26,985 bases of DNA from a virus (lineage: Duplodnaviria; Heunggongvirae; Uroviricota; Caudoviricetes). The notes below the pieces were generated by a model. It was given only the letters and a program-made list of their open reading frames with translations, had not been told where the DNA came from and did not search any database. The stretch's first letter is position 1. The number at the start of each line of letters is the position of its first letter. Positions 8,096 to 26,985 of this stretch are shown in pieces. The DNA lies in IMG/VR virus record IMGVR_UViG_2579779007_000002; one strand, 5' to 3'. A program made the translations under genes and the position numbers.

Positions 8096-9447
8096 TTATT
8101 CACCTCCACATGCCCCTCCAGTACGTCAATCATCCCGTCAGCAATCGCGGCTTCAAGCGACTGTGCAGATACGCGGCTGATACTGACCAGCACATCCGCA
8201 CGGTCATTCTGTCTGCCGACTGTCTGTGATGTTCTGACCACAATCCGGGCCATGCCGTCACGGGTTGCCACGACATACAGCAACTGGTGGTTCTCCCTGT
8301 CCCACAATACCGCCTGTGGTTTTGCCATCAGCGACGGCAGACGCTGTAAATCCTCCGGTTTCAGGGCGGCATCAGCAGTGGTCGCCAGACTTTTCCCGTT
8401 CATCACAAGCAGACGGGCTGGCATATTCCCGGTGCGCTGATGTACGGCTTCAGCTACCGATTCCGTCATAAAACCCAGTGCCCGGATTTCATGACCGGTC
8501 TGACGTGATCCTGCCAGGCGTTTAAGCCAGAGGGAAAAAGCAAGCTGACGCTCCCGGCTGTTATTCAGCGTCTGCACAACCTGCTCACGCAACTGCGCGT
8601 CGCGAATTTCCACCAGTTTTCGAATCAGTGCCTGATCCGTACCAAACGCCGCCGAACCCGGGTTATATGACCAGCCCACATCCGGCGTCATTTTTACCCG
8701 ACCGTTGTCAAACGTGGTTGACGATGTGCGGAAAATCTCTCCGGTGCTTTCATCCGTACCGGCATCCACTTCGCGGGTATTCATGAATGACGCACCATAA
8801 CTGACCTGTAGCCCCAGTTCTTTCATGCGGGCCGCAGACAGCGCCCGGACGCGACAGCGGCAGTTCCAGCCATTGGGCGGGTAATGCGTCTGCCAGAAAA
8901 TGTCGTCATACCTGAAAACCATATTGTGCAGCCGCGCATGTTCCGGGCGTGTTCTGCCATCCATAACGGCAACGTACTGCCAGTACGGGTACAAATCGGC
9001 GGTATTCATCATCTGCGCATAACGTCCTGCCCCATACGCCGTACGGGTATTGACGTTATAAATGGTTGCCAGACGACGCGGACTACCCAGCTCGATTACC
9101 TTTGCGTTTCCCTCTGCATCCACGATGATTTGTTTTCCCCACCATCCGAGTTTTTGCAGCCGGGGGGCCAGTGTGCGGGTAAATTCCTCACGGGTGATGC
9201 CTTCACTGACAGCCCGCTCCACTTCCTCACGGATTGTGGTCAGTACATCCATCCGGGTGGCTTTGGCAACGGTAAAGGCGCGTGCGTGCGCGTCTGCCAG
9301 TTGTTCGTACCAGTTCCAGGTGATGTTGTAGCCTTTGGCGCGGAAATACGCGACAGCCTCCTTTGGCGGGAGGCGTGCGGCATACGCCAGATCAATGGTC
9401 TGCTGCGGCATCCAGACGCCCCCATATATCGGCAACAAAAATGGCAC
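8092..9447 (-). CDS. F: head morphogenesis protein (Mu F-like)
   Basis: 451 aa ORF downstream of portal; true start may be the internal Met at 9411, since 9447 overlaps portal by 56 nt. Confidence 0.8.
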   Translation of the reverse strand: MPFLLPIYGGVWMPQQTIDLAYAARLPPKEAVAYFRAKGYNITWNWYEQLADAHARAFTVAKATRMDVLTTIREEVERAVSEGITREEFTRTLAPRLQKLGWWGKQIIVDAEGNAKVIELGSPRRLATIYNVNTRTAYGAGRYAQMMNTADLYPYWQYVAVMDGRTRPEHARLHNMVFRYDDIFWQTHYPPNGWNCRCRVRALSAARMKELGLQVSYGASFMNTREVDAGTDESTGEIFRTSSTTFDNGRVKMTPDVGWSYNPGSAAFGTDQALIRKLVEIRDAQLREQVVQTLNNSRERQLAFSLWLKRLAGSRQTGHEIRALGFMTESVAEAVHQRTGNMPARLLVMNGKSLATTADAALKPEDLQRLPSLMAKPQAVLWDRENHQLLYVVATRDGMARIVVRTSQTVGRQNDRADVLVSISRVSAQSLEAAIADGMIDVLEGHVEVNK

Positions 9448-10930
9448 GGGTCAGCATGTCGATAAGTTCTGCATCATCCATCTGCGGATATAATGAAGCG
9501 GCTTTGTTCATGGCGGCTTCCGGGCCATCTTTCAGCACAGAAAAAATGACGGGTTTCAGCAGGGGGTCAACCGAACGCTGCCAGTCTTCCGGTGAGACGC
9601 CCATCCGGTCGATATCATCCTCCTGCGGGATATCTTCAGCGGATAATGCGGCCTCTTTCTGCGAACCGTTATCCGGGACAACCGGTTGTACAGTAAACAC
9701 GGCTTCATCACCGACCGGCTGTGGAATATGAAGTTTTTCCTGTATCCAGGAGACCGGAATACGCATTCCCGCCGCCAGTTTCGGAATGGCGTCAGACAGT
9801 GCCGTAATATCACCCGCTTCACTGGTATCAAATACAATGCCCGGCAGGCGGTTAATATCAATGGTGCTGTCACTGTTCAGTGCCAGCAGGGGATAAATCA
9901 GGTCACGGTTAATACTGCGGGCAAGCTGGCCCACATCCGCATTACGGATTTCCCGGCGAACCTCATCATGCACTTCACCCAGCGACCGCGCACCTTTATC
10001 GCCAGCCTCTGTGGTCAGGGTGCCGCCCAGAATGGCTTTTGAAATCGCTTTTTCTGCCCAGCCAATCATCGCCATAAAAGGGTCTGACTGACCATCTGCG
10101 GCGCTCTGAAAATCCAGCGTCATCCCCATCGGAATAATGCCACCGGCACGTCGCCCGATATCCATCACGGCCTGCATCAGCGTGGCTTTCTCGCGGTTCG
10201 TTGAGCCGGTCGGATATTTACCGACGCGCATGGGGAGTCCGTAAATTTCCAGAAACTCTGCAAAATCACGCACGGAATAGTTTTTAAAAATAAAAGGCCA
10301 GATAAGCGTGCGCACAAGGCCATTGGTGCCGACATACCCGGTGCGGGATTTGGCCCGGTGCATAAACCAGCCGAACGGTTGCAGCTCCAGCCCGTGATAA
10401 GACGCATCACGCAGGCGTAATTCGTTCAGATTGTCGGGGTTCGCGCAGAACAGCGCCGGATCGCGATGATGCAGCGCCACCGGCACGCGCATTTTCCCCA
10501 GCCAGCCCCATTCAATCTCCTGCATGGAATAACCCTTGAGAATGGCATCACCGGCATCAAACAGGGCATCTTCAAACCACGCCGCATCATGCAGATATTC
10601 ATTCAGCATGTCGGCGTCTTTTTTCTCCTGTGCGCTGGCATCACGTGCCGGAGCGATGCGCCATTCCAGCGCCTGAATGGCAAGGCGGCGCTTGCTCAGT
10701 TCGGAAAAAAGGTGGGTGTCCTTTTCTTCCATATCAAAGGCCAGGTCAGCCTGTGCTGTCAGATCACCGCGTTCGGCATCACGCAGCATCTGCGCGGCCC
10801 GGTTCGGCGTCACACCACTGGAAGGATGCTCCTGCGTGCGCTTCATGACCATTGCCAGCTCATCGCTGCGGGTCTGCATTTCATCGTCAAAATCAAACGG
10901 CTGCCCGGAAATATCCAGAATACGGCCCAT
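9392..10930 (-). CDS. H: portal protein
   Basis: 512 aa ORF immediately after the large terminase with a 1-nt overlap; size and position of Mu portal. Confidence 0.85.
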   Translation of the reverse strand: MGRILDISGQPFDFDDEMQTRSDELAMVMKRTQEHPSSGVTPNRAAQMLRDAERGDLTAQADLAFDMEEKDTHLFSELSKRRLAIQALEWRIAPARDASAQEKKDADMLNEYLHDAAWFEDALFDAGDAILKGYSMQEIEWGWLGKMRVPVALHHRDPALFCANPDNLNELRLRDASYHGLELQPFGWFMHRAKSRTGYVGTNGLVRTLIWPFIFKNYSVRDFAEFLEIYGLPMRVGKYPTGSTNREKATLMQAVMDIGRRAGGIIPMGMTLDFQSAADGQSDPFMAMIGWAEKAISKAILGGTLTTEAGDKGARSLGEVHDEVRREIRNADVGQLARSINRDLIYPLLALNSDSTIDINRLPGIVFDTSEAGDITALSDAIPKLAAGMRIPVSWIQEKLHIPQPVGDEAVFTVQPVVPDNGSQKEAALSAEDIPQEDDIDRMGVSPEDWQRSVDPLLKPVIFSVLKDGPEAAMNKAASLYPQMDDAELIDMLTRAIFVADIWGRLDAAADH

Positions 10931-12585
10931 TACCAGCCCCCTCGTTCAAACTGGTGATAATCATCAAAATCATCGTTATCAACATCATCACCACGGTGGC
11001 GTGGTGGCAGCGCCTGTATGCTGTCCTCGTCGATAACAAAACCATTCATATAAGACGCCCTGACAGCCATACAGAGCGCCACGGCAAAGTCGCCATGTCG
11101 TCGGCCTTTACCGCTTTCATCTTTTGTGCGCCCCTTATCAATCTGCGGGATCCCCTTATCCACCTTGATATGAAGCAGGTCATCGAGTGTGGTCTGATGC
11201 CGGGCAATCGTGATGTTCTGCGCTTCAAACTCGCCTTTCAGTTTCGGCATCCACTCCTGATACCAGGCGGCGGTCAGACTGATGCAGTCGATCATCTCCG
11301 GGCCATAAATCAGACGGGCGGCTTCTGCCAGATAACCGCCGTTACCGGTGGCATCAAATGCAGCGCCGGTAAAACGGGGCAAACGGGACAGAATGAATAA
11401 AAGGATTTGTCGCTGCTGGTCATAGGTCACATTACGCAGCTCCACGCGGAAACATTCGCGTTTGCGTAAGTCAGGAGTGATGGCAAGCGGCACAAACACT
11501 GTCAGGTCGCCACGGCGTGCAAAGTCTTCGCCCAGTACGTGTTTATTGAGCGGCGACAGCGCATCGAGCAACGGGAGCAGCTCCTGTTCACACCAGTCCT
11601 GAACGATGCCGTGGCGCATTTGTGGTGTCAGCGACTCAAAATCGTCCGGGGCTTCAAAACGCAGAATCGGGATATCCCGCGCTGGCGTCATGGCGGCTTC
11701 AATCAGCACGCGTGACAGATAAGCGCCCCCGGATTTTTTAGGAATGCAGCCGTATTCCTCGTCGGCACTCTCTTTATTCGGCGCATTACGGTACAGGCCA
11801 TCACGCCAGGCTTTTTCCGCTTCCGGCGACCACGACTGATTCGTGACGTAACAGATACGCCGGTACAGTCCGTCAGCGATGGCATCATCCAGCGTGATGC
11901 GGTGAACGCTGTAATCCTTGCGCCCCTCGCGCGCATCCTGAATGTACTGGTTAAACAGGTTATCGACGCCGTTATGTGTCGATATGATCCGCACGCGGGC
12001 ACCCCACATGGTGAGCGCAAAAGCCGCTTTCAGGAGTTCGTCCAGGGCTTCATGAAATGCCGCCTCATCAATCACCACGTCCCCCTGCAAACCACGCAGG
12101 TTAGACGGACGGCTTGACAGCGCCTGCACCTTAAATCCGCTGTTCGGAAAGCGGATCATGTAGGTGAGGATTTCTTCTTTTTTGTCGCTGTCCCAGAAGG
12201 TCTGCTCCCATACGTCAGCCTTTGCCAGCTGGTTAAAGGCGCGGGCAAACAGGGCACAGGCGGCAATGTATTCCAGCGCCATTTCCTGACGAGAACCCAC
12301 ATAAAAGACGTTGCGACCACCGCGACGCCTCGGCTTTGCGGCCGTCATGACATTGCGGCCCGCTTCGGCCCATGTCAGACCGGTACGACGGGATTTTTCA
12401 GCGATGCAAATCTGGCTTTCATCCTCAAACCAGCGGCGCTGATAGCCCAGAAAAACCGGTTCATTGCGGGGCTGTGCTTCCCCGATATCGGTCACGATAT
12501 TCACGCCGAGCAGTCCGGCTTCCTCACGCAGGTTGATTTTGCGGGGCGCATGAAGGGCTTTAAGTTTGCTTTCTCTGGTGCTCAC
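10930..12585 (-). CDS. E: terminase large subunit
   Basis: 551 aa ORF followed by portal. Start is GTG at 12585 (in-frame TGA 8 codons upstream, no in-frame ATG nearby). Confidence 0.85.
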   Translation of the reverse strand: MSTRESKLKALHAPRKINLREEAGLLGVNIVTDIGEAQPRNEPVFLGYQRRWFEDESQICIAEKSRRTGLTWAEAGRNVMTAAKPRRRGGRNVFYVGSRQEMALEYIAACALFARAFNQLAKADVWEQTFWDSDKKEEILTYMIRFPNSGFKVQALSSRPSNLRGLQGDVVIDEAAFHEALDELLKAAFALTMWGARVRIISTHNGVDNLFNQYIQDAREGRKDYSVHRITLDDAIADGLYRRICYVTNQSWSPEAEKAWRDGLYRNAPNKESADEEYGCIPKKSGGAYLSRVLIEAAMTPARDIPILRFEAPDDFESLTPQMRHGIVQDWCEQELLPLLDALSPLNKHVLGEDFARRGDLTVFVPLAITPDLRKRECFRVELRNVTYDQQRQILLFILSRLPRFTGAAFDATGNGGYLAEAARLIYGPEMIDCISLTAAWYQEWMPKLKGEFEAQNITIARHQTTLDDLLHIKVDKGIPQIDKGRTKDESGKGRRHGDFAVALCMAVRASYMNGFVIDEDSIQALPPRHRGDDVDNDDFDDYHQFERGGW

Positions 12586-12640
12586 GGGTGAAAAATCCGG
12601 TATAAATTTTCAGGCATTAATCAGTAAAAAAGAGGTTTTT

Positions 12641-12835
12641 ATGAAAGAGAAACTGACCATTGATCAAAAAATCGAAATTGCCCGGATAGCCGTGCAAATG
12701 TTTGAATCCACCCGGGCAAAAGGCGTTTCACTTGAGATCTCCTGTTCAGGAAAAGCATCAGTGGAAGAAAACACATTTAATGCTTTCTACAAAATTGTTG
12801 AAAAAACCGTTATCGGTGAACCTGAGAATAACTGA
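12641..12835 (+). CDS. small hypothetical protein, 64 aa, in AT-rich insert
   Basis: ATG at 12641 preceded by AAGAGG with 5-nt spacer; TATAAA box at 12601-12606; stop followed by GGCCCG/CGGGCC stem at 12842-12860. Product MKEKLTIDQKIEIARIAVQMFE... not recognised. Confidence 0.45.
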   Translation: MKEKLTIDQKIEIARIAVQMFESTRAKGVSLEISCSGKASVEENTFNAFYKIVEKTVIGEPENN

Positions 12836-13013
12836 TCACCTGGCCCGCTGTAGCCGGGCCATCCACCAGTTGCATAACCAGATACAGGGCCTCGGCCATA
12901 ATTCGTGGATGGACTTCCGGATCCTCATCAATCTGTTTTTTCACAACGGGCCACAGTGCCATTGCCAGTTCTGTTGAGGTCTTGTATTTAGTTTTTTCAT
13001 CCGCCATTTTCAT
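12810..13013 (-). CDS. small hypothetical protein, 65-67 aa, in AT-rich insert
   Basis: GAGGAG Shine-Dalgarno directly upstream; ATG at 13013 and again at 13007 (better spacing). Its 3' end overlaps the convergent plus-strand ORF by 26 bp. Confidence 0.45.
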   Translation of the reverse strand: MKMADEKTKYKTSTELAMALWPVVKKQIDEDPEVHPRIMAEALYLVMQLVDGPATAGQVISYSQVHR

Positions 13014-13017
13014 CTCC

Positions 13018-13188
13018 TCAGGACAAAGTCCTTAGTTGTTTTATGGTCGTATGCCATGAATTGCCTGAAGCCATAGCCTGAACAAGCACATCCCGAATCT
13101 GGTGTATCAACCGGACATCAGACAATGTTGCAATCCTGAAGGCTTTTTTATGGGCACTGATTAGCTGTGCTTTGTAATTATTTTTCAT
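13018..13188 (-). CDS. small hypothetical protein, 56 aa, in AT-rich insert
   Basis: Internal ATG of track ORF 13018..13383, located 11 nt after the stop of the D-like gene. Stop codon overlaps the Shine-Dalgarno of the next ORF (translational coupling). No own Shine-Dalgarno. Confidence 0.35.
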   Translation of the reverse strand: MKNNYKAQLISAHKKAFRIATLSDVRLIHQIRDVLVQAMASGNSWHTTIKQLRTLS

Positions 13189-13198
13189 AACGTAACGC

Positions 13199-13789
13199 CT
13201 ACGCTTTCCCCAGCAGTACATCACGGATGCGCTGCTCCAGTTCTTCGCTGATGCCATCCTGCCCGCGCAGTTCTTCACTGACGGCGTTTGCCGCTTCTTC
13301 TGCGAACGCCTGGCGGATTTCTTTCTCGCGCCGGTGGCTGGACATTGCTGTGGATTCCAGACGCTGTGCCGCCAGCATGGCATTTTTCAGCAGGTCAATA
13401 TCCACGTCAGATTCCGGGTTTTCGATTTGCCGCATCATGGCCTTAAAAAGCTGGCTGCGGGCCATTTCCAGAATCAGCTTTGTGGTTTCGCCCATTGGCT
13501 TGTCGCCAAGCTCTGCGGTCAGTGCTGACGTCATTTCACGCATCTGTCGCAGGTTATGGCCTACCTGCTCGACGTTCGTCGCGTAACGGTTCAGACCGGA
13601 ACGGGAGAGTTTCATCTCATCCGGCAGGCCAGCGTCTTCAATCAGTGCGTTAATTTCTTCAAGAATACGGGCCTGTGGGATCGCCTTATCACGCAGCATT
13701 TCATGCAGCGTTTTACGTACGTTTTCCGGCAGTAAATCCACTTTTGAAGCCCGTCCCCGTGTTTTCCTGTCCATCACGCCTCCTGTCAT
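13199..13789 (-). CDS. D: terminase small subunit-like DNA-binding protein (Mu gp27 position)
   Basis: 196 aa ORF (start possibly internal Met 6) in the slot preceding large terminase in Mu. Confidence 0.6.
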   Translation of the reverse strand: MTGGVMDRKTRGRASKVDLLPENVRKTLHEMLRDKAIPQARILEEINALIEDAGLPDEMKLSRSGLNRYATNVEQVGHNLRQMREMTSALTAELGDKPMGETTKLILEMARSQLFKAMMRQIENPESDVDIDLLKNAMLAAQRLESTAMSSHRREKEIRQAFAEEAANAVSEELRGQDGISEELEQRIRDVLLGKA

Positions 13790-16940: not shown

Positions 16941-17569
16941 TGTGCCATCCTCCGTGTCTTTCTGGCATGGGCATAAGCCGCCGTCATGGCATCATAGCCG
17001 CGCAGTTCACGCCCGGACGGACTGACCGGCAACGGAAGCCCGTGACGGGAAAAGGCTTCACGAATACAGCGGATATGCCACTGCTTGAGAGTTTCGAGAA
17101 CAATCAACAGGGTGTCGCCATGACACCACGCCAGCGTGGAAACACCCTGTCCGCCATTACGTTTCGCCGTCAGGCGCTGAACATATTTATCCAGCGCCAC
17201 ATCACCGCCATCGGTAATAAAACCGTCTTCTGCCATCTGCTGCCAGACTTTGTATACCTTCTCGCGGGGCGTGACATGCCCCTTAAAGCGGCGACGTGGA
17301 TGTTTATTCAGCTTCTTAAAGCCGCGTTCTTTCATGGCATCGAGCACCTGTTCCAGTTGCGTTACCGTCAGCTCGCGGCAACTGATTTTGCCCGTTTTCT
17401 GCATCAGAAAAGCGCGGTAAGTATCGTCGTCGAGTTGTAGATCACGACGGGCGACATGGATTAATTTAATCAGGGATGTGCGACTCATGATCATACCTTT
17501 AAAAAGCGGTGCTACCACACCGCTTGTATCGCTGAAACACTTTCCGGTCATATCGGCCAGATTAGTCAT
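16937..17569 (-). CDS. gemA: GemA-like early regulatory protein
   Basis: Position immediately upstream of mor; true start probably the internal Met at 17494 or 17488, giving about 183-185 aa. Confidence 0.55.
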   Translation of the reverse strand: MTNLADMTGKCFSDTSGVVAPLFKGMIMSRTSLIKLIHVARRDLQLDDDTYRAFLMQKTGKISCRELTVTQLEQVLDAMKERGFKKLNKHPRRRFKGHVTPREKVYKVWQQMAEDGFITDGGDVALDKYVQRLTAKRNGGQGVSTLAWCHGDTLLIVLETLKQWHIRCIREAFSRHGLPLPVSPSGRELRGYDAMTAAYAHARKTRRMAQ

Positions 17570-17903
17570 TCCAATACTCTAGCTCAGTTCTGATTTCTTC
17601 ATCGATCTCATCATTTGTGACTTCTTCATCCAGATAGTCGCGGGCCTCTTTACAATACTTTTCTCGGCATGTTGCATACCAGTTAGAAAACTCCGGTGAC
17701 CAGCCTGTGTCCTTGCCGTCGTAATCAAACCTGGCGTTTTTCTCAGCCATGCTTTCAACCATGTTTTCAGCCGTAATAAGCCCTAATTCACGCACCCCAC
17801 GCAAAAAACTTTTACGCATGTGAGGGCTAACTTTTGAATCACAAACAGGCTTAAATCTGACTTCCCAACGGCGAATACAACGTGCATTAAGTGATTTGCT
17901 CAT
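17562..17903 (-). CDS. hypothetical early protein, acidic C-terminus
   Basis: 113 aa ORF in early accessory block; no recognised motif. Confidence 0.45.
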   Translation of the reverse strand: MSKSLNARCIRRWEVRFKPVCDSKVSPHMRKSFLRGVRELGLITAENMVESMAEKNARFDYDGKDTGWSPEFSNWYATCREKYCKEARDYLDEEVTNDEIDEEIRTELEYWND

Positions 17904-17905
17904 AG

Positions 17906-18574
17906 TTATGCTTCCTGAATACGCTTAAACTCAATTACCCATACCCACGGATTAGACAGCCAGTTATCTTGCCCATAAATACCGCGCCAGATATCACCAA
18001 AACTAACGCGATAAACAGCTTCCGGTGGCGTAATTTTGTACGTCGCCGGAAATGCGCCTTCCGCTTTCGCATCTGCCTCGCTAATGTCATGCAGCCGTTC
18101 CACACGCACGTCGGTTATTCCCAACAGAATGCGCGACGCCCAGCGCGGCATGTGGATAGATGGGCACCACCTGCCATCAAACTTTTCATTCACAGTGCGA
18201 GGTTTCCAGTCAGCATCATCAGGTATTGACCACAGACCGTAATCACCAGGCTTTTGTTCACAACTTGCCCGATAAATCCTTGCTGCCTTCTTCTCATCGC
18301 CATGACAAAGGTTGCCGTTCCAGTCCACACTGCAACCATCCTCATTGCCTAATATTGCCCACGCTTCACGGACCCAGATGCGATCACCAACGTTACCGAA
18401 CGGGCATAAACCATGCTTAGGTGCATCCATAACGTGGGTATAAACACCGTTACGATGGATAACCAGACAGTTATCGTGTCCGACATTTTTTACCGGGCGG
18501 CGTGTTTGCGTCTTTCTTCCTTCGAGAATTGCCCTGACCATATCGTCATTAAAAGCAACGCCACGTTCTTTCAT
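17906..18574 (-). CDS. hypothetical early protein, possible ASCH/PUA-like fold
   Basis: 222 aa; N-terminal FNDDMVRAILEGRKTQTRR resembles the basic Gly-x-Lys-T-x-T-x-R motif of ASCH domains; recognition by eye only. Confidence 0.45.
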   Translation of the reverse strand: MKERGVAFNDDMVRAILEGRKTQTRRPVKNVGHDNCLVIHRNGVYTHVMDAPKHGLCPFGNVGDRIWVREAWAILGNEDGCSVDWNGNLCHGDEKKAARIYRASCEQKPGDYGLWSIPDDADWKPRTVNEKFDGRWCPSIHMPRWASRILLGITDVRVERLHDISEADAKAEGAFPATYKITPPEAVYRVSFGDIWRGIYGQDNWLSNPWVWVIEFKRIQEA

Positions 18575-20567: not shown

Positions 20568-20987
20568 TCAGTACAGCAGAGGCTCGCGCAGTGATGCCGG
20601 AATATGCCGCAGCGATAACTGAACCGCTTTCAGGGCAAGCGAGGAATAACAGCAGCGCGCCCAGCCTTTAGCCATTAACCGATAATCGCGCCAGATACGC
20701 TGCCACATTTCACGGGCTTTAGGGTCTGATGCGCAGATGTATTCCCGGTCCATGACGTACTCCCATAAATCCACGTTGAACGCACCGCCAAATGCAATGG
20801 CGCGGGATATGCTTTCGCCGCAATAACGCGCACAGATGCTGTAATGGTCGAAAGCAATCAGGTAAGTCTTTTCACCACAATCATCAACTTCACGCGCACA
20901 AATAAACTCGCGTAATTCACCACCGTTGTTATTGCGTTCCTGAATTCGGATTAATGCCTGAATTTCATTTCGGATTTTGACGTTCAT
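20568..20987 (-). CDS. hypothetical early protein
   Basis: 139 aa Cys/Trp/Arg-rich ORF; unrecognised. Confidence 0.45.
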   Translation of the reverse strand: MNVKIRNEIQALIRIQERNNNGGELREFICAREVDDCGEKTYLIAFDHYSICARYCGESISRAIAFGGAFNVDLWEYVMDREYICASDPKAREMWQRIWRDYRLMAKGWARCCYSSLALKAVQLSLRHIPASLREPLLY

Positions 20988-21007
20988 TGTCAGCGTTCCT
21001 TTGCGAA

Positions 21008-21277
21008 TTAATGTTTAACCGCATTCACCGGATGTGGTACTAAATCACATTCAGCTTCCATACCCACTTTCTTCATAGTGGTCAGCATCTCATCTTTGGC
21101 CTTTTTAATAATTTCAGGAGCCATAGTCAGGACGATATTTGCCAGTAAATCATGAGGCCCGGTATTTTCCGTTGGCGAGATATCTGCAAGACATGCTTTT
21201 GCATCCAGAACTTCTCTGCGCCCATTGCAACCGTCACTACTTTCCAGCCATGTAAACTCAAAGATAACCTTTGCCAT
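21008..21277 (-). CDS. hypothetical early protein
   Basis: 89 aa ORF; unrecognised. Confidence 0.4.
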   Translation of the reverse strand: MAKVIFEFTWLESSDGCNGRREVLDAKACLADISPTENTGPHDLLANIVLTMAPEIIKKAKDEMLTTMKKVGMEAECDLVPHPVNAVKH

Positions 21278-21288
21278 TTTGTTTCTCC

Positions 21289-21543
21289 TTATTGATTCTG
21301 AATAACTGCGCTGGCTTTTACCTTCGCGCCTTTTACCTGCTTAAAGAAAACTGCGCTGCACCACGGACAACATGTCAGGGAATCCCGAATTTCCTTTTCG
21401 GGTGAGCATTGCGTCATAATCTGTTCACCACATCCGGGGCATTTATATGTCGTCAGCGGCACCCCGTGGCACTGACAGTGTTTAACCCATTCAATATATT
21501 TTTCAGCTTTAATACACATCGTTATCTCCAGATAATCTGGCAA
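21289..21543 (-). CDS. Cys-rich small protein, putative zinc ribbon
   Basis: 84 aa with 10 Cys, including CQCH, CPGCGE and CCPWC clusters. Confidence 0.45.
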
Positions 21544-21749
21544 CCATTAAGACGGGCCGTCCATACAGAACGGGCCACCCCGGACTTATGCTCCATAATT
21601 CTGACCGCGCTTTTTACCAGTTCCACCGGTGGGTAAGTGATTTCAAGAATCGGACGCGCCACACCGAGATATGATTCATTTACATGACTCCCGCGCGCCT
21701 GTAACCAGTTCTGCGCATCCGTTGCCATTTTTATATTTCGGGCCATCAT
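21522..21749 (-). CDS. small early protein at the kil position
   Basis: 75 aa ORF immediately downstream of B, the slot occupied by kil in Mu; identity not verified. Confidence 0.45.
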
Positions 21750-21764
21750 AATTTCTTCTCCTTC

Positions 21765-22703
21765 TTAATTACGCAGCAGCGTTGAAATATCAACGTCCAG
21801 GTCTAATTCACGGAAAGCCTGACGCAGATAATCTTCGTTAACACGCTCACCTTTACCGTGAGCCGTCATGGCTGCAAGGCGAAGTGAATGATTCAGAATG
21901 CGAAGCGCACCTGGTTTCTGCGCAATCTGCTGTAATAACTCCAGTTCTTTTTCGCCGTTAATCTGCCAGGCATCCGCAATAGCTTTTACATCGGCTTTTT
22001 TGGTTTTATTAATTGCAGTGCGCTTTGCAATACGGGAAAACAGACGGGCAAATTCAACCGTTCTGTTACCCCCCGTCATATTTGAATAAACCCGGTGATT
22101 TCCCATCAGCACAAGGCCAATACGGGTTGATTCCTGTAACAGGCGGAGTTCTTCCAGAACTTCGGCACCAAGATGATCAGCTTCGTCGATGATAACCAGC
22201 CCCTGTGTACCTTCAAGGCGACGTCGCAGGGCGCGGGAGAGCGGCCCTTTACGGCGTGGTGCGTCATTCATTCCCAGCTCAAACGCCAGTTCAGTAAGAC
22301 ATTCCAGAACGCTGGCACAGGATGGCGTAATGGTGATCATCCAGACATTGTTATTGGTGCGGCGATATTCACGGGCCGCTTCGGTTTTGCCCACACCAGG
22401 ATTGCCACATACAACAGCAATACTTTCAGTCAGGCTGGCAAAACGCATACTTGTCCAGATTTGTTTTACCGTCTGCGTTTCCACAAAGCGGGGCGGTTCA
22501 GGTAGTTCTGCAACTACATGATATTTTTCCAGCCAGCGTTGCAGCATTTGTGAAACACGCTCGTTATCCCCGTTGTACTTATCATTGATAAAACTACTGA
22601 TAGTTCCGGTAGAAAGTCCGCTCTCAAGAGCAATTTGTTTAAAGGTGGTTTCTTCATTTTCTACAAGCGTGCGCAGTCCTGCGCGAATATCGGAAATATT
22701 CAT
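21765..22703 (-). CDS. B: transposition ATPase / target DNA activator B
   Basis: 312 aa, same length as Mu B; P-loop GNPGVGKT and DEAD-like IIDEAD motifs; N-terminal helix-turn-helix. Confidence 0.9.
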   Translation of the reverse strand: MNISDIRAGLRTLVENEETTFKQIALESGLSTGTISSFINDKYNGDNERVSQMLQRWLEKYHVVAELPEPPRFVETQTVKQIWTSMRFASLTESIAVVCGNPGVGKTEAAREYRRTNNNVWMITITPSCASVLECLTELAFELGMNDAPRRKGPLSRALRRRLEGTQGLVIIDEADHLGAEVLEELRLLQESTRIGLVLMGNHRVYSNMTGGNRTVEFARLFSRIAKRTAINKTKKADVKAIADAWQINGEKELELLQQIAQKPGALRILNHSLRLAAMTAHGKGERVNEDYLRQAFRELDLDVDISTLLRN

Positions 22704-22741
22704 CTGAATAACCTCGTAATTAAATTTTGTTTAAACGTTAA

Positions 22742-24835
22742 TTAAATGGCTTTTTTACGTCTGTTCTGTTCCAGAATATCCAGCGAATGATTCAGATATT
22801 CATCACGCTCAGTTTCGTATTCATCATCATGCACTTCCTCACACCTCAACGGCTGAACGGTCACCACATTACCAACAGGGCGATAAACATTATCCAGCCA
22901 GGGTTCTGTCGTTTTTTGTTCAATAACCTGAATACCTTCATCCTCAGCATCACGTATTTTTTCCTCAGCACGCTTGCGCATTCCTTTAATACGCTGCTGT
23001 TGTTTGTGATATTCAGCCGTAACAGGAAAGGCTGCGCGTTTATTGCCGTTCCATATCGCCTCACAGATAAAGCTACCGTCCTTACGGCGTACCGTAATTC
23101 GCTCGGCATCGTGAATGTCATAGCTGATAAGTACCTTGCGACCATGTTCATCACGTAGCTCTGGCGCGTAGTAAATATTGTTCAGCCACTGGATTTCGCA
23201 GCGTCTTACCGGACGCTCCACCATCGGGCGGAACATGTCACGCAGCTCAATATCACTCAGCCACTCAATTTCAGTGTCTTCTTCCGCTAAGCGTTTTTTT
23301 CTGAACTCTACCGGGCTGTAATGTTTTCCGTTTGGTTTCATCGGCAATTCAGAATGTGGGCGGTTGTTGTACCACTCCACCCCCTCACGGATAGCCTCAA
23401 TCAGTTCTGACCAGGACGGCAGCTCGCGCATTGCGGCTTTCTGACGGGCGCTCAGTGGCTTGTCCTGTTGCAGGGCATTAAACGCTGAACGCAGATCACG
23501 ATTAAGTATTCGCAACGATTCCCGGTCAGCCCCCTTGCCGAAATAGGTGCGATACCTCCTTGCTATACGCATCGGTAACGTCCGGTTCAGGCGCTCAATA
23601 ATGCCGCGTCCCTGCGGATTTCCCGCAATACCGGTGGGGTGGTTAATCCCCAGGCGGGGCAGAATCCCGACGATCTCTTTATCCAGCATATCTGCCGTTT
23701 CACCGGAACCATTATCCGAGTAATACAGGAATGGTTTTCCGTGATTGCGAATGCCGTGTTGTATCGCCCCGGCAACAGCGAACACGTTCTCCGCAAGATC
23801 AAGACTCCAGCCAACCACAAACCGGGTTCCACCGTCGATCACAAACGTAACTTCCGGTGAAAATGGACGCCCGTGAACCGGATGCGCACATTTCAGCTTC
23901 ATACCGTGACCGTCACCAATCCAGACATAATTCACCGGCATAGCTGTCCAGTCGCGGCGGGTGAATCCTTCAAGCTGACGGTATTCACTGCCGGTAACGC
24001 GCCCTTTTTGTTTCACCACTTCCGGCAGTTTTTTCATGGCATACCGGACAACATCATAGGAAGGCATCACCTCCAGCATGTATGGTTCGTCCGCATGGCG
24101 ACGCTGCCAATCAGCGACAAAATCCTCGTAGGCTTCTGACATAGGCCTGCCGTTAGCCTGACGATACTGCGCCAGAAATTCAGGCAGCCAGCTAATTTCT
24201 TCCGGTTTTATTTCGTCGCGCTTTCCTGGTGCCAGTAACAGCAATCGTTCTGCGGCATTCTGTGCTTTGTTAAACGCAGCTATCCAACGTTTGAGCGTAA
24301 TTGCGCTCAGAGTTCGCTCTTTCCCTTTACGGGCATTAGCAGTAATGACCAAAGATTCCAGGCGTTCTTCCAGGTTACCCTGAGCTAACCGCGACACAAT
24401 AAAACGTATAGCGCTGGCACAACTGAATCCCGGCTCCTGGCTAATTCGTAGAACTTCACAGACAAGAGCAATACGCGCTTCTGCAACTTTACGTTGATTT
24501 TCCGTAAGCGCATTCAGACGCTCTTCTACCAATTGTGGCGAACCGCGATATGCCTCAACAGGCTGTACAACATTTTGTTTGCGTTCACGCTTTACAGGAG
24601 GCTGGGTAGTTATCTCCTGCGGGGCGGTTGCCATCAGTTGAGCTACATGGCGCTCACGTAACGCCCGTTGTGTAACCGGAGGGAGGCAGTCGATGCTGTA
24701 TTCAATGGTTTTTGAACCCGCACGTTTGCGCCTGAAATGCTCAGATGAGGCCAGTTTCCTTATGGAATACCGCACCCCTTGCGCAGTTCCCGGCATACCT
24801 GGTAGCCCTACAAGCTCATTAACTGACACAAACAT
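22742..24835 (-). CDS. A: DDE transposase A (MuA-type)
   Basis: 697 aa; C-terminal end ...ERDEYLNHSLDILEQNRRKKAI matches my recollection of Mu A; N-terminal domain is Mu-type winged helix but divergent in sequence. Confidence 0.9.
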   Translation of the reverse strand: MFVSVNELVGLPGMPGTAQGVRYSIRKLASSEHFRRKRAGSKTIEYSIDCLPPVTQRALRERHVAQLMATAPQEITTQPPVKRERKQNVVQPVEAYRGSPQLVEERLNALTENQRKVAEARIALVCEVLRISQEPGFSCASAIRFIVSRLAQGNLEERLESLVITANARKGKERTLSAITLKRWIAAFNKAQNAAERLLLLAPGKRDEIKPEEISWLPEFLAQYRQANGRPMSEAYEDFVADWQRRHADEPYMLEVMPSYDVVRYAMKKLPEVVKQKGRVTGSEYRQLEGFTRRDWTAMPVNYVWIGDGHGMKLKCAHPVHGRPFSPEVTFVIDGGTRFVVGWSLDLAENVFAVAGAIQHGIRNHGKPFLYYSDNGSGETADMLDKEIVGILPRLGINHPTGIAGNPQGRGIIERLNRTLPMRIARRYRTYFGKGADRESLRILNRDLRSAFNALQQDKPLSARQKAAMRELPSWSELIEAIREGVEWYNNRPHSELPMKPNGKHYSPVEFRKKRLAEEDTEIEWLSDIELRDMFRPMVERPVRRCEIQWLNNIYYAPELRDEHGRKVLISYDIHDAERITVRRKDGSFICEAIWNGNKRAAFPVTAEYHKQQQRIKGMRKRAEEKIRDAEDEGIQVIEQKTTEPWLDNVYRPVGNVVTVQPLRCEEVHDDEYETERDEYLNHSLDILEQNRRKKAI

Positions 24836-24837
24836 TT

Positions 24838-25074
24838 TTATGCCACCTTACGAGCGTAACGGCTGGGCCAGATCTCCTCCGGCGCAACACCAATAGCATC
24901 AGCAATAATGCGCTCATATTTTGGGCATTTGCGGTACAGGGCATTCTTTAAAGAATCCTGGTTTAAACCGGCTTCAATGGACAGAGAGCGTAAAGTAAAA
25001 CCTTTTACATGCACCGCCGCGACAACATGCGCGGGGTGCCAGTCCTGTTTAACAACTTCATTTATAGACATCAT
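24838..25074 (-). CDS. ner: Ner-like early transcriptional regulator
   Basis: Start set at the MM pair (25074) preceded by AAGGA, giving ~78 aa; contains DWH...IIA-A....PE.IWPSRY pattern shared with Mu Ner. Track ORF extends to 25146 (102 aa). Confidence 0.7.
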   Translation of the reverse strand: MMSINEVVKQDWHPAHVVAAVHVKGFTLRSLSIEAGLNQDSLKNALYRKCPKYERIIADAIGVAPEEIWPSRYARKVA

Positions 25075-25254
25075 TCGTTTATCCTTAAAAGTTATCTGTG
25101 CGGATAACACCGCCGGATAATCTCTGCGGATAAAGTATTGATCCACATGTGGTGCATGTAAAGCAAAAATTTGATTTTCTTTTGCCTGATATGGATCGAT
25201 TGTGTTTTCTATTGAAATTATCCTTTTGCATCAATTAGATAAGAGGAAAGAAAA
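25075..25254. promoter_or_regulatory. divergent early/repressor promoter and operator region
   Basis: Three direct (G/C)CGGATAA repeats at 25100, 25113 and 25126 (13-bp phasing); inverted repeat GTTATC-n6-GATAAC at 25091-25108; IHF-like AATCAAATTTTTG (minus strand) at 25164-25176; TTGAAA-17 bp-TTAGAT upstream of the repressor start. Confidence 0.6.
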
Positions 25255-25800
25255 ATGGATAAGCTGAAAGGAAAGTCACTTTCTTTGCCAGAAGTGACAA
25301 AAGAAAGTATCCCGGAGCGTTTGAGAGAATTAATTGGAAAAAGAAGTGTAAGGGCTGCTGCGAAAGATTGGGGGTTGTCGTTTTCCACTTTAAACAATTA
25401 CCTGACGCGAGGTACTGAACCTTCACTCAGTGTGGCTCGGCAGATAGCTGCAATTGAAGGGGTTACTATCGAATGGATATGTGGATCACATGATGATTCA
25501 CATGAGAATCACCCAATTTCAACTAACACGCATAATGAGAATACAAAACTCATTATGAACATCATTAACGCCTTGGATGCAAAGGATATTGAGCGACTAT
25601 CTAAGACTCTTGCCCTCAATGGTGCTAAGTATCTGACTCAAATGTTGGAACCCGAAAATCAAGGCTTACTGCGTCTTGAAGGACGAAAACGTGTCGCCGC
25701 GCTGCTATTAGATGATTTACCTGATGAGCGTATCAGAGAGATTTTGGAAGAAATTGAGAGCAGCAAACTCTCAAGTAGTGTAAAATCGAGAGCGGGCTAG
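25255..25800 (+). CDS. prophage repressor, XRE-type helix-turn-helix
   Basis: 181 aa, divergent from ner/A/B as for Mu c; motif KDWGLSFSTLNNYLTRGTEPSLSVARQIAAIEGVTIEWI resembles Cro/cI-type helix-turn-helix rather than a Mu-type winged helix. Confidence 0.65.
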   Translation: MDKLKGKSLSLPEVTKESIPERLRELIGKRSVRAAAKDWGLSFSTLNNYLTRGTEPSLSVARQIAAIEGVTIEWICGSHDDSHENHPISTNTHNENTKLIMNIINALDAKDIERLSKTLALNGAKYLTQMLEPENQGLLRLEGRKRVAALLLDDLPDERIREILEEIESSKLSSSVKSRAG

Positions 25801-25854
25801 TTCAATTAGCCCGCAGTGAACAGATTTTGAAGGCATTTAAAATGCTAAAATTGC

Positions 25855-26040
25855 AGTAACGCGTAGTATCAAATATTTTTTCGTTTTTAGCTTTCTTTGC
25901 GATGGTAGTATCAAATCGCATGTTGTGCGCATAACACTGTTTTATGTCATAACTGTTTGTTTTATCCCATCAAATCCCGTTTAATCCACTTTCCTCCCGG
26001 ATTTTTCACCAGTATCAAATAATTTACCTCTCTATATTCA
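25855..26040. repeat. prophage left-end terminal repeats (putative transposase binding sites L3, L2, L1)
   Basis: AGTATCAAAT at 25865-25874, 25907-25916 and 26011-26020, all in one orientation; reverse complement of 25990-26010 (...AAAAATCCGGGAGGA...) resembles the Mu left end. Confidence 0.55.
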
Positions 26041-26985
26041 GCTCAGCAGCGCGACCAACAGCACATCTGAAATGCTGGCGGCAACGCCAAAGTCGGTAAA
26101 GGCAGCCTATGACCTTGCTAACGGGAAATATACCGCTCAGGACGCTACGACAGCACAAAAAGGAATTGTCCAGCTCAGTAGTGCAACCAACAGCGCATCT
26201 GAAACGCTTGCCGCGACACCGAAAGCAGTGAAAGCAGCTAATGATAATGCGAATGGTCGGGTACCTTCTGCCCGTAAGGTGAATGGTAAGGCGCTTTCAG
26301 CGGATATAACACTGACGCCGAAAGATATTGGTACGCTTAACTCAACAACAATGTCATTCAGCGGTGGAGCTGGTTGGTTCAAATTAGCAACGGTAACCAT
26401 GCCACAGGCGAGTTCTGTTGTTTCAATTACGTTGATTGGTGGCTCGGGATTTAACGTGGGGTCACCTCAACAGGCAGGTATATCTGAACTTGTTTTGCGT
26501 GCAGGTAATGGTAATCCGAAGGGGATTACTGGTGCTTTATGGCAGCGCACATCGACAGGGTTTACAAATTTTGCCTGGGTCAATACATCTGGTGATACTT
26601 ACGATATTTACGTTGCAATCGGAAATTATGCGACAGGTGTAAATATTCAATGGGATTATACCAGTAATGCCAGCGTGACTATTCATACGTCACCAGCATA
26701 TTCTGCTAATAAGCCGGAAGGGTTAACGGACGGTACAGTTTATTCACTCTATACGCCATCAGAGCAGTTTTATCCGCCTGGCGCACCAATCCCGTGGCCA
26801 TCAGATACCGTTCCGTCTGGTTATGCCCTGATGCAGGGGCAGACTTTTGACAAATCTGCTTACCCGAAACTTGCAACCGCTTATCCGTCAGGCGTGATCC
26901 CTGATATGCGTGGCTGGACGATTAAGGGCAAACCTGCCAGTGGTCGGGCCGTATTGTCTCAGGAACAGGACGGCATTAAATCGCA
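25985..26985 (+). pseudogene. side tail fibre gene, 5'-truncated 3' fragment (runs off window end)
   Basis: Frame open from 25985 to window end with no start codon; from 26036 encodes two tandem QLSSATNS(T/A)[14 protein letters not shown] repeats and ...[68 protein letters not shown], typical of lambda Stf-like fibres. Not in the ORF track because it has no start. Confidence 0.65.

Follow-up and report, generated by a model that had tools for sequence, protein, structure and literature searches.

What occupies the 613 nucleotides (nt) that separate the two terminase genes in the Mu-like phage of IMG/VR record IMGVR_UViG_2579779007_000002, and what might this DNA do for the phage that carries it? 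The whole stretch analysed here (26,985 nt, referred to as the window) is a Mu-like phage genome with its late genes on the minus strand, and it was found by megablast to be 96–98% identical to Mu, D108 and the Yersinia YpM phages over most of its length. The segment in question (12586–13198, exactly 613 nt) lies between gene D, encoding the small terminase gp27 (DUF3486/PF11985; 13199–13774, minus strand), the product of which is 100% identical to Mu D at the amino acid (aa) level, and gene E, encoding the large terminase gp28 (10930–12585, minus strand), with a product 97.8% identical to Mu E. The D stop codon is TAG at 13201–13199 and the E start codon is GTG at 12585–12583. Three short open reading frames (ORFs) lie between them in the order D, A, B, C, E. 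A preliminary description of this DNA had proposed that the interval is an AT-rich moron or small accessory system; the length of the gap, the ORF coordinates, the 26-nt overlap of ORF-B and ORF-C and the motifs GAGGAG, AAGAGG and TATAAA that it listed were all confirmed on re-reading. It is proposed here, at a little less than an even chance, that the cassette may be an analogue, unrelated in sequence, of the Tab/anti-Tab (tail assembly blocker and antidote) defence and self-immunity pair of the Pseudomonas phage JBD26, its function being suggested by that analogy.

The cassette was clearly an addition to an otherwise familiar junction. No insert is present at this position in Mu (AF083977), D108, SfMu, PhiR68_1, Mu_3F6 or the Yersinia phages YpM_3, YpM_5, YpM_6 and YpM_23; the gap between D and E is 7 nt in Mu versus 613 nt here, and the flanks of Mu, D108, SfMu and the four Yersinia phages are 96–99% identical to those of the window. 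The G+C content of the cassette is 0.427 against a window mean of 0.522 (standard deviation 0.044), so that it ranks among the 3.9% of 613-nt windows poorest in G+C; no other stretch of this rank lies in the late-gene half of the window. The lowest 60-nt G+C count within it is 16/60, with 31/60 at the 5′ end of E. The suggestion of a low-GC insert missing from Mu and D108 was therefore borne out, as was its reading as a moron, that is, an add-on unit, the cassette being absent from Mu and D108, compositionally distinct and made up of real genes. Like the morons described by Hendrix and Juhala (for example HK97 gp15 and the morons of the JBD phages), it is an extra unit that some genomes carry and others, nearly identical to them, do not; it is situated in the late region, is lower in GC and includes one gene that is possibly transcribed apart from the late operon. 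It differs from them in that ORF-A and ORF-B give no indication of being transcribed autonomously and seem to be carried along by the late operon.

The expectation that this was a one-off foreign insert did not hold, as members of a cassette family, about 10 diverged alleles in all, were found to occupy this very slot in Mu-like prophages from five or more enterobacterial genera, the hosts including Escherichia, Salmonella (L009), Erwinia (L006), Mixta (L007 and L008) and Apirhabdus (L024). Further alleles (L012, L030–L034 and L036) came from metagenome or sequencing-run assemblies. All homologues with a readable neighbourhood were located between gp27 (PF11985) and the large terminase of a Mu-like prophage. 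The window-type cassette itself was also found in IMG/VR and human-gut metagenome contigs and, at 99% identity, in a prophage of E. coli RM8082, where the Prokaryotic Genome Annotation Pipeline (PGAP) predicts three hypothetical proteins with too long a start for ORF-C. A Mu-type D gene was detected in 44 of 5,426 complete E. coli genomes. The Mu junction is uninterrupted in 31 of these 44, and the inserts in the remaining 13 are all forms of one cassette family (one with A+B+C, nine with A and a remnant of B, and three with B+C of the SE11 type), this being the only cargo seen at the D/E junction among the 44 genomes. Homologues were few, with three to eight clusters per protein among 5.8 billion clusters, seven clusters among 1.84 billion representatives in an exhaustive hidden Markov model (HMM) search with ORF-B, and three loci in a metagenome scan. 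A scan of 185,579 species-representative genomes returned no locus with the ORF-B pattern and one with the ORF-C pattern. The few matches in these scans and in the exhaustive HMM search indicate that the ORF-B family is rare. No description of the cassette genes was found in literature searches.

Across alleles the make-up of the cassette varies. All three genes are present in the window type and in L006, L007/L008, L009, L012 and L034; B+C is found in the SE11 type, L032, L033 and L036, A+B in Tongde and L030, B only in L031, and A with a B remnant in the L004 type, with none of the three in Mu. The idea that the slot is generally occupied in Mu-like phages was rejected, as the D/E-type slot was found empty in HS6, in JBD25 and in the Mu-like element carried by a Shiga toxin (Stx) phage.

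The frames of ORF-A, ORF-B and ORF-C stay open and conserved in length across genera at 25–70% aa identity. The pairwise ratio of non-synonymous to synonymous substitution rates (dN/dS) was 0.25–0.68 for ORF-A, 0.12–0.53 for ORF-B and 0.17–0.44 for ORF-C, with 0.05–0.12 for D. Since these values are below 1, all three ORFs are, as judged from their substitution patterns, real coding genes which evolve fast under purifying selection. This divergence does not follow that of the neighbouring genes. In relatives, D and E are 82–93% identical to the window proteins, with 21–31% for ORF-A, 42–71% for ORF-B and 32–61% for ORF-C; a comparison of the window with SE11 gave differences of 2% in D, 53% in ORF-B and 68% in ORF-C. 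The Mantel correlation with the divergence of D was 0.08 for ORF-B and −0.03 for ORF-C. This uncoupling of the cassette from its flanks shows that alleles have been exchanged at this site, and fast evolution uncoupled from the flanks is typical of conflict loci.

The gene of most interest is ORF-C (12641–12835, plus strand, 64 aa), which runs antisense to the late operon, starts 55 nt from the E start and is considered a candidate prophage-expressed blocker by its Tab-like position. It is preceded by an AAGAGG Shine-Dalgarno sequence (12630–12635, plus strand), the AGAGG core of which is invariant in 8/8 aligned upstream regions, and by a −10-like box, TATAAA (12601–12606, plus strand), which could mark a promoter. 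At the corresponding position GATAAT is found in Erwinia, Salmonella and L012, GATAAG in Apirhabdus and GGTAAG in Mixta, and in most lineages the box ends 33–36 nt upstream of the ORF-C start codon. An independent promoter for ORF-C is plausible on the strength of this box. The first 14 residues of the protein (MKEKLTIDQKIxIA) are almost invariant across alleles, while codons 2–14 have a proportion of synonymous differences (pS) of 0.74 and of non-synonymous differences (pN) of 0.05 over 45 pairs. As the N-terminus is invariant and yet its synonymous sites are saturated, the constraint lies on the peptide and not on the DNA, from which it is judged that ORF-C is translated and that its N-terminus is critical. 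In its middle part the sequence is hypervariable, and AlphaFold predicted this part as a disordered linker between helices at residues 7–26 and 41–58, with a predicted local distance difference test score (pLDDT) of 67.5. ORF-C belongs to phrog_25148, a PHROG family without assigned function, which the window allele matches only over its first 19 residues (E-value 6e-7), other alleles matching over the whole family, up to 3e-47 for that of SE11.

ORF-B (12810–13007, minus strand, 65 aa), the candidate antidote by its anti-Tab-like position, has a GAGGAG Shine-Dalgarno sequence (13014–13019, minus strand) which overlaps the ORF-A stop and is separated by 6 nt from the start codon ATG at 13007. 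Initiation at a second ATG, at 13013, is unlikely; this codon directly abuts the GAGGAG with a spacing of 0 nt and is supported by no homologue. The homologues all begin with MA(D/E/N)EK, which identifies 13007 as the real start. An alignment of thirteen alleles gave the conserved core (E/S)(A/T)L(Y/W)LLMQ(M/L)V.GP..AG.VI, and the predicted model contains three helices (residues 11–28, 34–49 and 51–63; pLDDT 72.6). ORF-B matches phrog_21398, another PHROG family without assigned function, at 6e-39. In the preliminary description none of the three proteins had been recognised, which stands for ORF-B and ORF-C, as their PHROG families have no function assigned to them, but not for ORF-A, which is treated further on.

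That description had also taken the translationally coupled ORF-A and ORF-B as the functional layout of the cassette, and this part had to be given up. Because B+C cassettes occur without ORF-A and ORF-C never occurs without ORF-B, the informative conserved pair is, on the comparison of alleles, the convergent B/C and not the coupled A-B. The 3′ ends of ORF-B and ORF-C overlap by 26 nt (12810–12835) in the window and equally in L006, L007, L009, L032, L033 and L034, with 11 nt in SE11. ORF-C was accompanied by an adjacent convergent ORF-B in 11/11 alleles (window, SE11, L036, L006, L007, L024, L009, L012, L032, L033 and L034), while ORF-B occurs without ORF-C in three lineages (Tongde, L030 and L031). 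Once ORF-B is broken beside ORF-C, namely in the decayed Apirhabdus prophage L024, where it is truncated to 41 aa. In this prophage (Apirhabdus apintestini CP138906.1, 2100–4700) D and E are frameshifted fragments, and ORF-C (65 aa) and ORF-A are intact. The dN/dS of the L024 ORF-C against the Mixta allele was 0.17. An intact ORF-C in such a decayed prophage fits a host-beneficial gene expressed in the lysogen, as far as its sequence can tell.

The first gene after D, ORF-A (13018–13188, minus strand, 56 aa), had a weak PHROG match to phrog_220, the minor head protein/DNA pilot family (E-value 4e-4). When its profile was aligned with hhalign to the 159 ORFs of the window, the F/gp30 ORF of the window itself was the sole outlier (E-value 1e-8), and an alignment with MuF profiles gave an E-value of 7e-10 over MuF residues 31–78. 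Two diverged subgroups of ORF-A each matched the same residues independently (E-values 6e-6 and 1.4e-7). The homologous segment of F in the window was placed by hhalign at 9178–9321 on the minus strand. ORF-A is thus, on these profile alignments, a stand-alone paralogue of residues 31–78 of the phage's own MuF/gp30. It shares with the MuF/SPP1 gp7 family (PF04233; phrog_220) the pattern WNW..QL..AHA.AF.VA ... R..V..A...G.T..EF, but covers only about 48 residues, the rest of the approximately 440-aa protein being absent, and is encoded about 3.7 kb from F in another slot. Residues 31–78 lie at the N-terminal edge of PF04233, the domain beginning just inside the segment, and PF04233 of Pfam was matched by none of the ORF-A alleles. 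SPP1 gp7 binds the portal (PMC5576092). No solved structure of MuF was found.

Other searches gave little. Pfam, NCBIfam and PADLOC returned no match for ORF-A, ORF-B or ORF-C even at E-values up to 10, and no paralogue of ORF-B or ORF-C was detected among the 159 ORFs of the window. The only profile matches in the PDB were designed helical-repeat proteins, which were judged to be artefacts of summed weak repeats.

A comparable arrangement was recognised in the transposable, Mu-like Pseudomonas phage JBD26, in the genome of which the small terminase gene gp29 is followed by atab (plus strand, 83 aa), by tab (83 aa) on the opposite strand and, after a gap of 30 nt, by the large terminase gene; atab and tab overlap by 47 nt at their 3′ ends. 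Tab is expressed by the prophage from its own promoter and blocks tail assembly of invading phages via the tape measure protein (Patel et al., 2024; PMC10884400). Gene 30 (atab), directly after the small terminase, is expressed late, and its product binds to Tab and shields assembly of the phage itself; no deletion removing only atab could be obtained, a phage without both atab and tab was viable, and atab added alone made another phage resistant (PMC10884400). According to these authors, no homologues of Tab are known outside the close relatives of JBD26 (PMC10884400).

The likeness between the two loci extends over several features. Both are carried by Mu-like transposable phages, with the partner gene (ORF-B or atab) located downstream of the small terminase and on the late strand, and the opposite-strand gene next to the large terminase start, the 3′ ends of the two being convergent and overlapping. 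In both the proteins are small (about 60–85 aa) and without known domains, the pair is dispensable and patchy in its distribution, and the opposite-strand gene occurs only together with its partner. They differ in that the cassette proteins have 64–65 aa instead of 83 aa and overlap by 26 nt instead of 47 nt, in that many cassette alleles have a third gene, ORF-A, between D and ORF-B, and in the hosts, which are Enterobacterales for the cassette, Tab being known from the close relatives of JBD26. There is also no detectable sequence or fold similarity, and the target in JBD26 is the tape measure protein, whereas any target of the cassette is putative. The occurrence of ORF-C never without ORF-B, of ORF-B sometimes alone, and the survival of ORF-C in a dead prophage are as the genetics of JBD26 predict. 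The reading as an analogue of Tab/anti-Tab is therefore favoured on account of the matching architecture, the one-sided dependence of ORF-C on ORF-B, the translation of ORF-C, the fast evolution uncoupled from the flanks, the patchiness and the homology of ORF-A to MuF. The system BstA/aba, like other prophage defences with a linked self-immunity element, is comparable in so far as a prophage defence that would hit its own lytic cycle is combined with a linked self-immunity element; however, BstA is a large protein and aba a DNA element, and no similarity in sequence or layout was seen.

If the cassette works in this manner, transcription of ORF-C would run counter to the late operon, starting at a weak promoter of its own that overlaps the E start, and the lysogen would contain the product, a small protein of two helices. 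This protein would bind some conserved component of virion assembly or packaging in superinfecting Mu-like phages, with the result that no infectious progeny is formed. Synthesis of ORF-B, which lies in the late operon after the small terminase, would await the lytic growth of the resident prophage, and ORF-B would then neutralise ORF-C; late read-through, which is antisense to ORF-C, would probably also shut ORF-C off. ORF-A, which reproduces the helical N-terminal segment of MuF/gp30 as a separate protein, would be a third component, expressed late and not obligatory; its most likely role would be to compete, or to serve as a decoy, at the MuF/portal step. The timing of expression, the binding of ORF-B to ORF-C and the assembly target are all inferred from the analogy. 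A more specific form of the proposal, in which the cassette is a second, sequence-unrelated enterobacterial blocker/antidote family in the terminase slot with its target in the head or in packaging, ORF-C binding the N-terminal helices of MuF or a portal partner and ORF-A acting as the decoy, is rather improbable as a whole.

Several observations weigh against the analogy with Tab/anti-Tab. No significant match was obtained when profiles of 8–13 alleles of ORF-A, ORF-B and ORF-C were aligned by hhalign to Tab (YP_010299225) and anti-Tab (all E-values above 0.1), and Foldseek searches with the ORF-B model against PDB and BFVD and with the ORF-C model against BFVD gave nothing below an E-value of 0.9. 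The models themselves are simple helical bundles of moderate confidence (pLDDT 67–73). With no match in sequence or fold, the link to Tab/anti-Tab is one of position and architecture only, and the cassette is not filed as a member of the Tab family. ORF-C has a poor −35 region, which would coincide in part with the start codon of E, and a scan for consensus sigma-70 promoters found none for ORF-C. The divergence of ORF-B was weakly correlated with that of ORF-C (Mantel r = 0.22, p = 0.06; r = 0.14 without the overlapping codons), so that there is no signal of co-evolution for a specific interaction between the two, and the phages with ORF-B only could equally mean that ORF-B has a late function of its own. 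A decoy role for ORF-A is without precedent in JBD26. It should also be noted that the anti-Tab and Tab proteins of JBD26 resemble no structural protein of that phage, the tape measure protein included. Short C-terminal resemblances to Tab and anti-Tab which were picked out by eye (PEDS/PENN and PTTAKVVS/PATAGQVIS) were discarded as not significant.

Part of this evidence could be accommodated if two unrelated functions merely share the slot, with ORF-A and ORF-B as late helper or anti-host proteins, for instance proteins that counteract defence systems of the host or of prophages or that modulate head assembly, and ORF-C as an independent lysogenic-conversion or superinfection-exclusion gene. 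Such an explanation would agree with the presence of ORF-B alone or with ORF-A in several phages, with the retention of ORF-A alone in nine E. coli prophages and with the lack of detectable co-evolution of ORF-B and ORF-C. The alleles of the latter two also appear shuffled, the ORF-C proteins of the window and L033 being 58% identical and the ORF-B proteins only 42%. It does not explain why ORF-C was never without ORF-B in the 11 alleles or why the convergent 26-nt overlap is conserved; furthermore, an independent moron would be expected sometimes alone or in another slot, whereas every readable ORF-C homologue was in this one. A mere sharing of the slot is accordingly considered unlikely, though still deserving of some weight.

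The location of the cassette inside the packaging gene cluster, together with the homology of ORF-A to MuF, could point instead to a packaging or head-assembly module, in which ORF-A, as a mimic of the MuF N-terminus, and ORF-B would tune the terminase, portal and MuF, while ORF-C or its antisense transcript would damp leaky expression of the two terminase genes in the lysogen. The cassette has indeed rewired the region in which E is initiated, the Shine-Dalgarno sequence and the translational coupling of Mu having been lost, and the putative promoter region of ORF-C overlaps the E start. Such a module would, however, be a dispensable one, since Mu, D108 and the 31 of 44 E. coli genomes with the uninterrupted junction do without it and have near-identical D, E, portal and F. 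The rapid divergence and replacement of alleles is also unlike that of core assembly factors (compare the dN/dS of about 0.05–0.12 for D), and the strong constraint on the ORF-C protein means that ORF-C is not merely an antisense RNA. This role in packaging is thought to be distinctly unlikely.

The preliminary description had further suggested a small toxin-antitoxin-like or defence/anti-defence module. The second half of that suggestion is retained in the favoured analogy with Tab/anti-Tab; the first was not supported, the pair being convergent and having no toxin fold and no PADLOC or Pfam match. A classical toxin-antitoxin or abortive-infection module, which kills or arrests the host, would agree with small, paired, fast-evolving genes on a mobile element. 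However, the convergent pair is not co-transcribed, no toxin domain, helix-turn-helix (HTH) or ribbon-helix-helix (RHH) antitoxin domain or membrane segment was found, nor was there any NCBIfam match, and in type I systems with a convergent layout the antitoxin is an RNA, whereas the two partners in the cassette are both constrained as proteins, all of which makes such a module very improbable. That the ORFs are spurious, the DNA being an AT-rich spacer that codes for nothing or a remnant in decay, as might be thought from their short length, the lack of a curated family match and the absence of annotation by PGAP in the A-only variants, is hardly credible and is refuted by the conservation data, namely the open and length-conserved frames, dN/dS values below 1 and conserved ribosome-binding sites, with no Rfam match.

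To our knowledge, assembly-blocking defence combined with a late-expressed antidote has so far come from a single system. If the analogy with Tab/anti-Tab is correct, both the assembly-blocking strategy and the use of the terminase-junction slot would be general in transposable phages, a genetically tractable E. coli/Mu model for such defence would be available, and the MuF-like ORF-A would point to MuF or the portal as the target step. Should the target be the head or packaging, the terminase junction would be a general, convergently used site for assembly-targeting defence with self-immunity, and the long-uncharacterised N-terminus of MuF would gain a defined interaction. Even if the model is wrong, three real and conserved families of small proteins have been defined, and the annotation has been corrected with respect to the start codons of ORF-B and ORF-C and the unannotated ORF-A in nine E. 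coli genomes.

The presence of the cassette is accompanied by changes at the start of the large terminase gene, at 12560–12600 in the window. The E gene of Mu begins with ATG, and the 7 nt that separate it from the D stop accommodate a GAGGG Shine-Dalgarno sequence. In the window the GTG start of E has no Shine-Dalgarno sequence, and in the cassette-bearing phages generally E starts with GTG (ATG in Tongde and L004) without a recognisable one; the N-terminus of the protein also differs, being VSTRESKLKALH in the cassette-bearing phages versus MNTRENNLKALH in Mu. The putative ORF-C promoter overlaps this start codon. Due to the missing Shine-Dalgarno sequence and the altered start and N-terminus, the cassette may lower or re-time translation of the large terminase.

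A repeat search detected an imperfect 15-nt direct repeat, with copy 1 (TGAAAAATCCGGTAT; 12589–12603, plus strand) 87% identical to copy 2 (TGAAAAAACCGTTAT; 12799–12813), the two copies together bracketing ORF-C. In the C-less relatives Tongde and L004, the neighbourhoods of both repeat copies are joined in a 24-nt spacer. From this bracketing and joining, it appears that ORF-C may be gained or lost as a discrete unit via short homology at the repeats. No known RNA was found in the cassette region with Rfam at E-values up to 1, and the terminator search gave one weak hairpin with a T-run on the plus strand (13020–13032), no more than expected by chance.

Minor differences were noted between individual alleles. 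In RM8082 (L003, 3412–3603) the codon corresponding to the ORF-A stop of the window (13018–13020) is CGA and not TGA, by which ORF-A is 7 codons longer (…TLSRGDENGG) and overlaps the ORF-B start. Distant alleles are arranged like RM8082, with the end of ORF-A (…EREMKNG*) overlapping the ATGGC of ORF-B. As RM8082 and these alleles read past the site, the TGA of the window looks like a premature stop relative to an ancestral coupled A-B arrangement, as far as the alignment of alleles allows. The RM8082 prophage has a frameshifted lysozyme gene according to PGAP. In E. coli Z0117EC0036 (L004, 2928–3201) and eight more E. coli genomes (H18–H25) the spacer between D and E is 274 nt long and PGAP annotates no gene in it; it contains an intact ORF-A (98% identical) and an internally deleted remnant of ORF-B. 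A 48-aa hypothetical ORF on the late strand was seen in the slot between small and large terminase of the Shewanella phage vB_SspM_MuM16-2 (L040, 2064–2210), a distant Mu-like phage.

Elsewhere in the window, further 613-nt windows with a GC content of at most 0.45 are located at 17367–18075, 20674–21619, 22234–23329 and 24644–26458, all in the early/semi-essential half, the minimum of 0.385 being reached in the 613-nt stretch starting at 25046. The megablast match to Mu and D108 ends at approximately 22832, and the match to YpM_5 and YpM_6 runs on to 25000. From the end of the Mu and D108 match, it follows that the early/regulatory end of the window (22832–26985) differs from that of canonical Mu.

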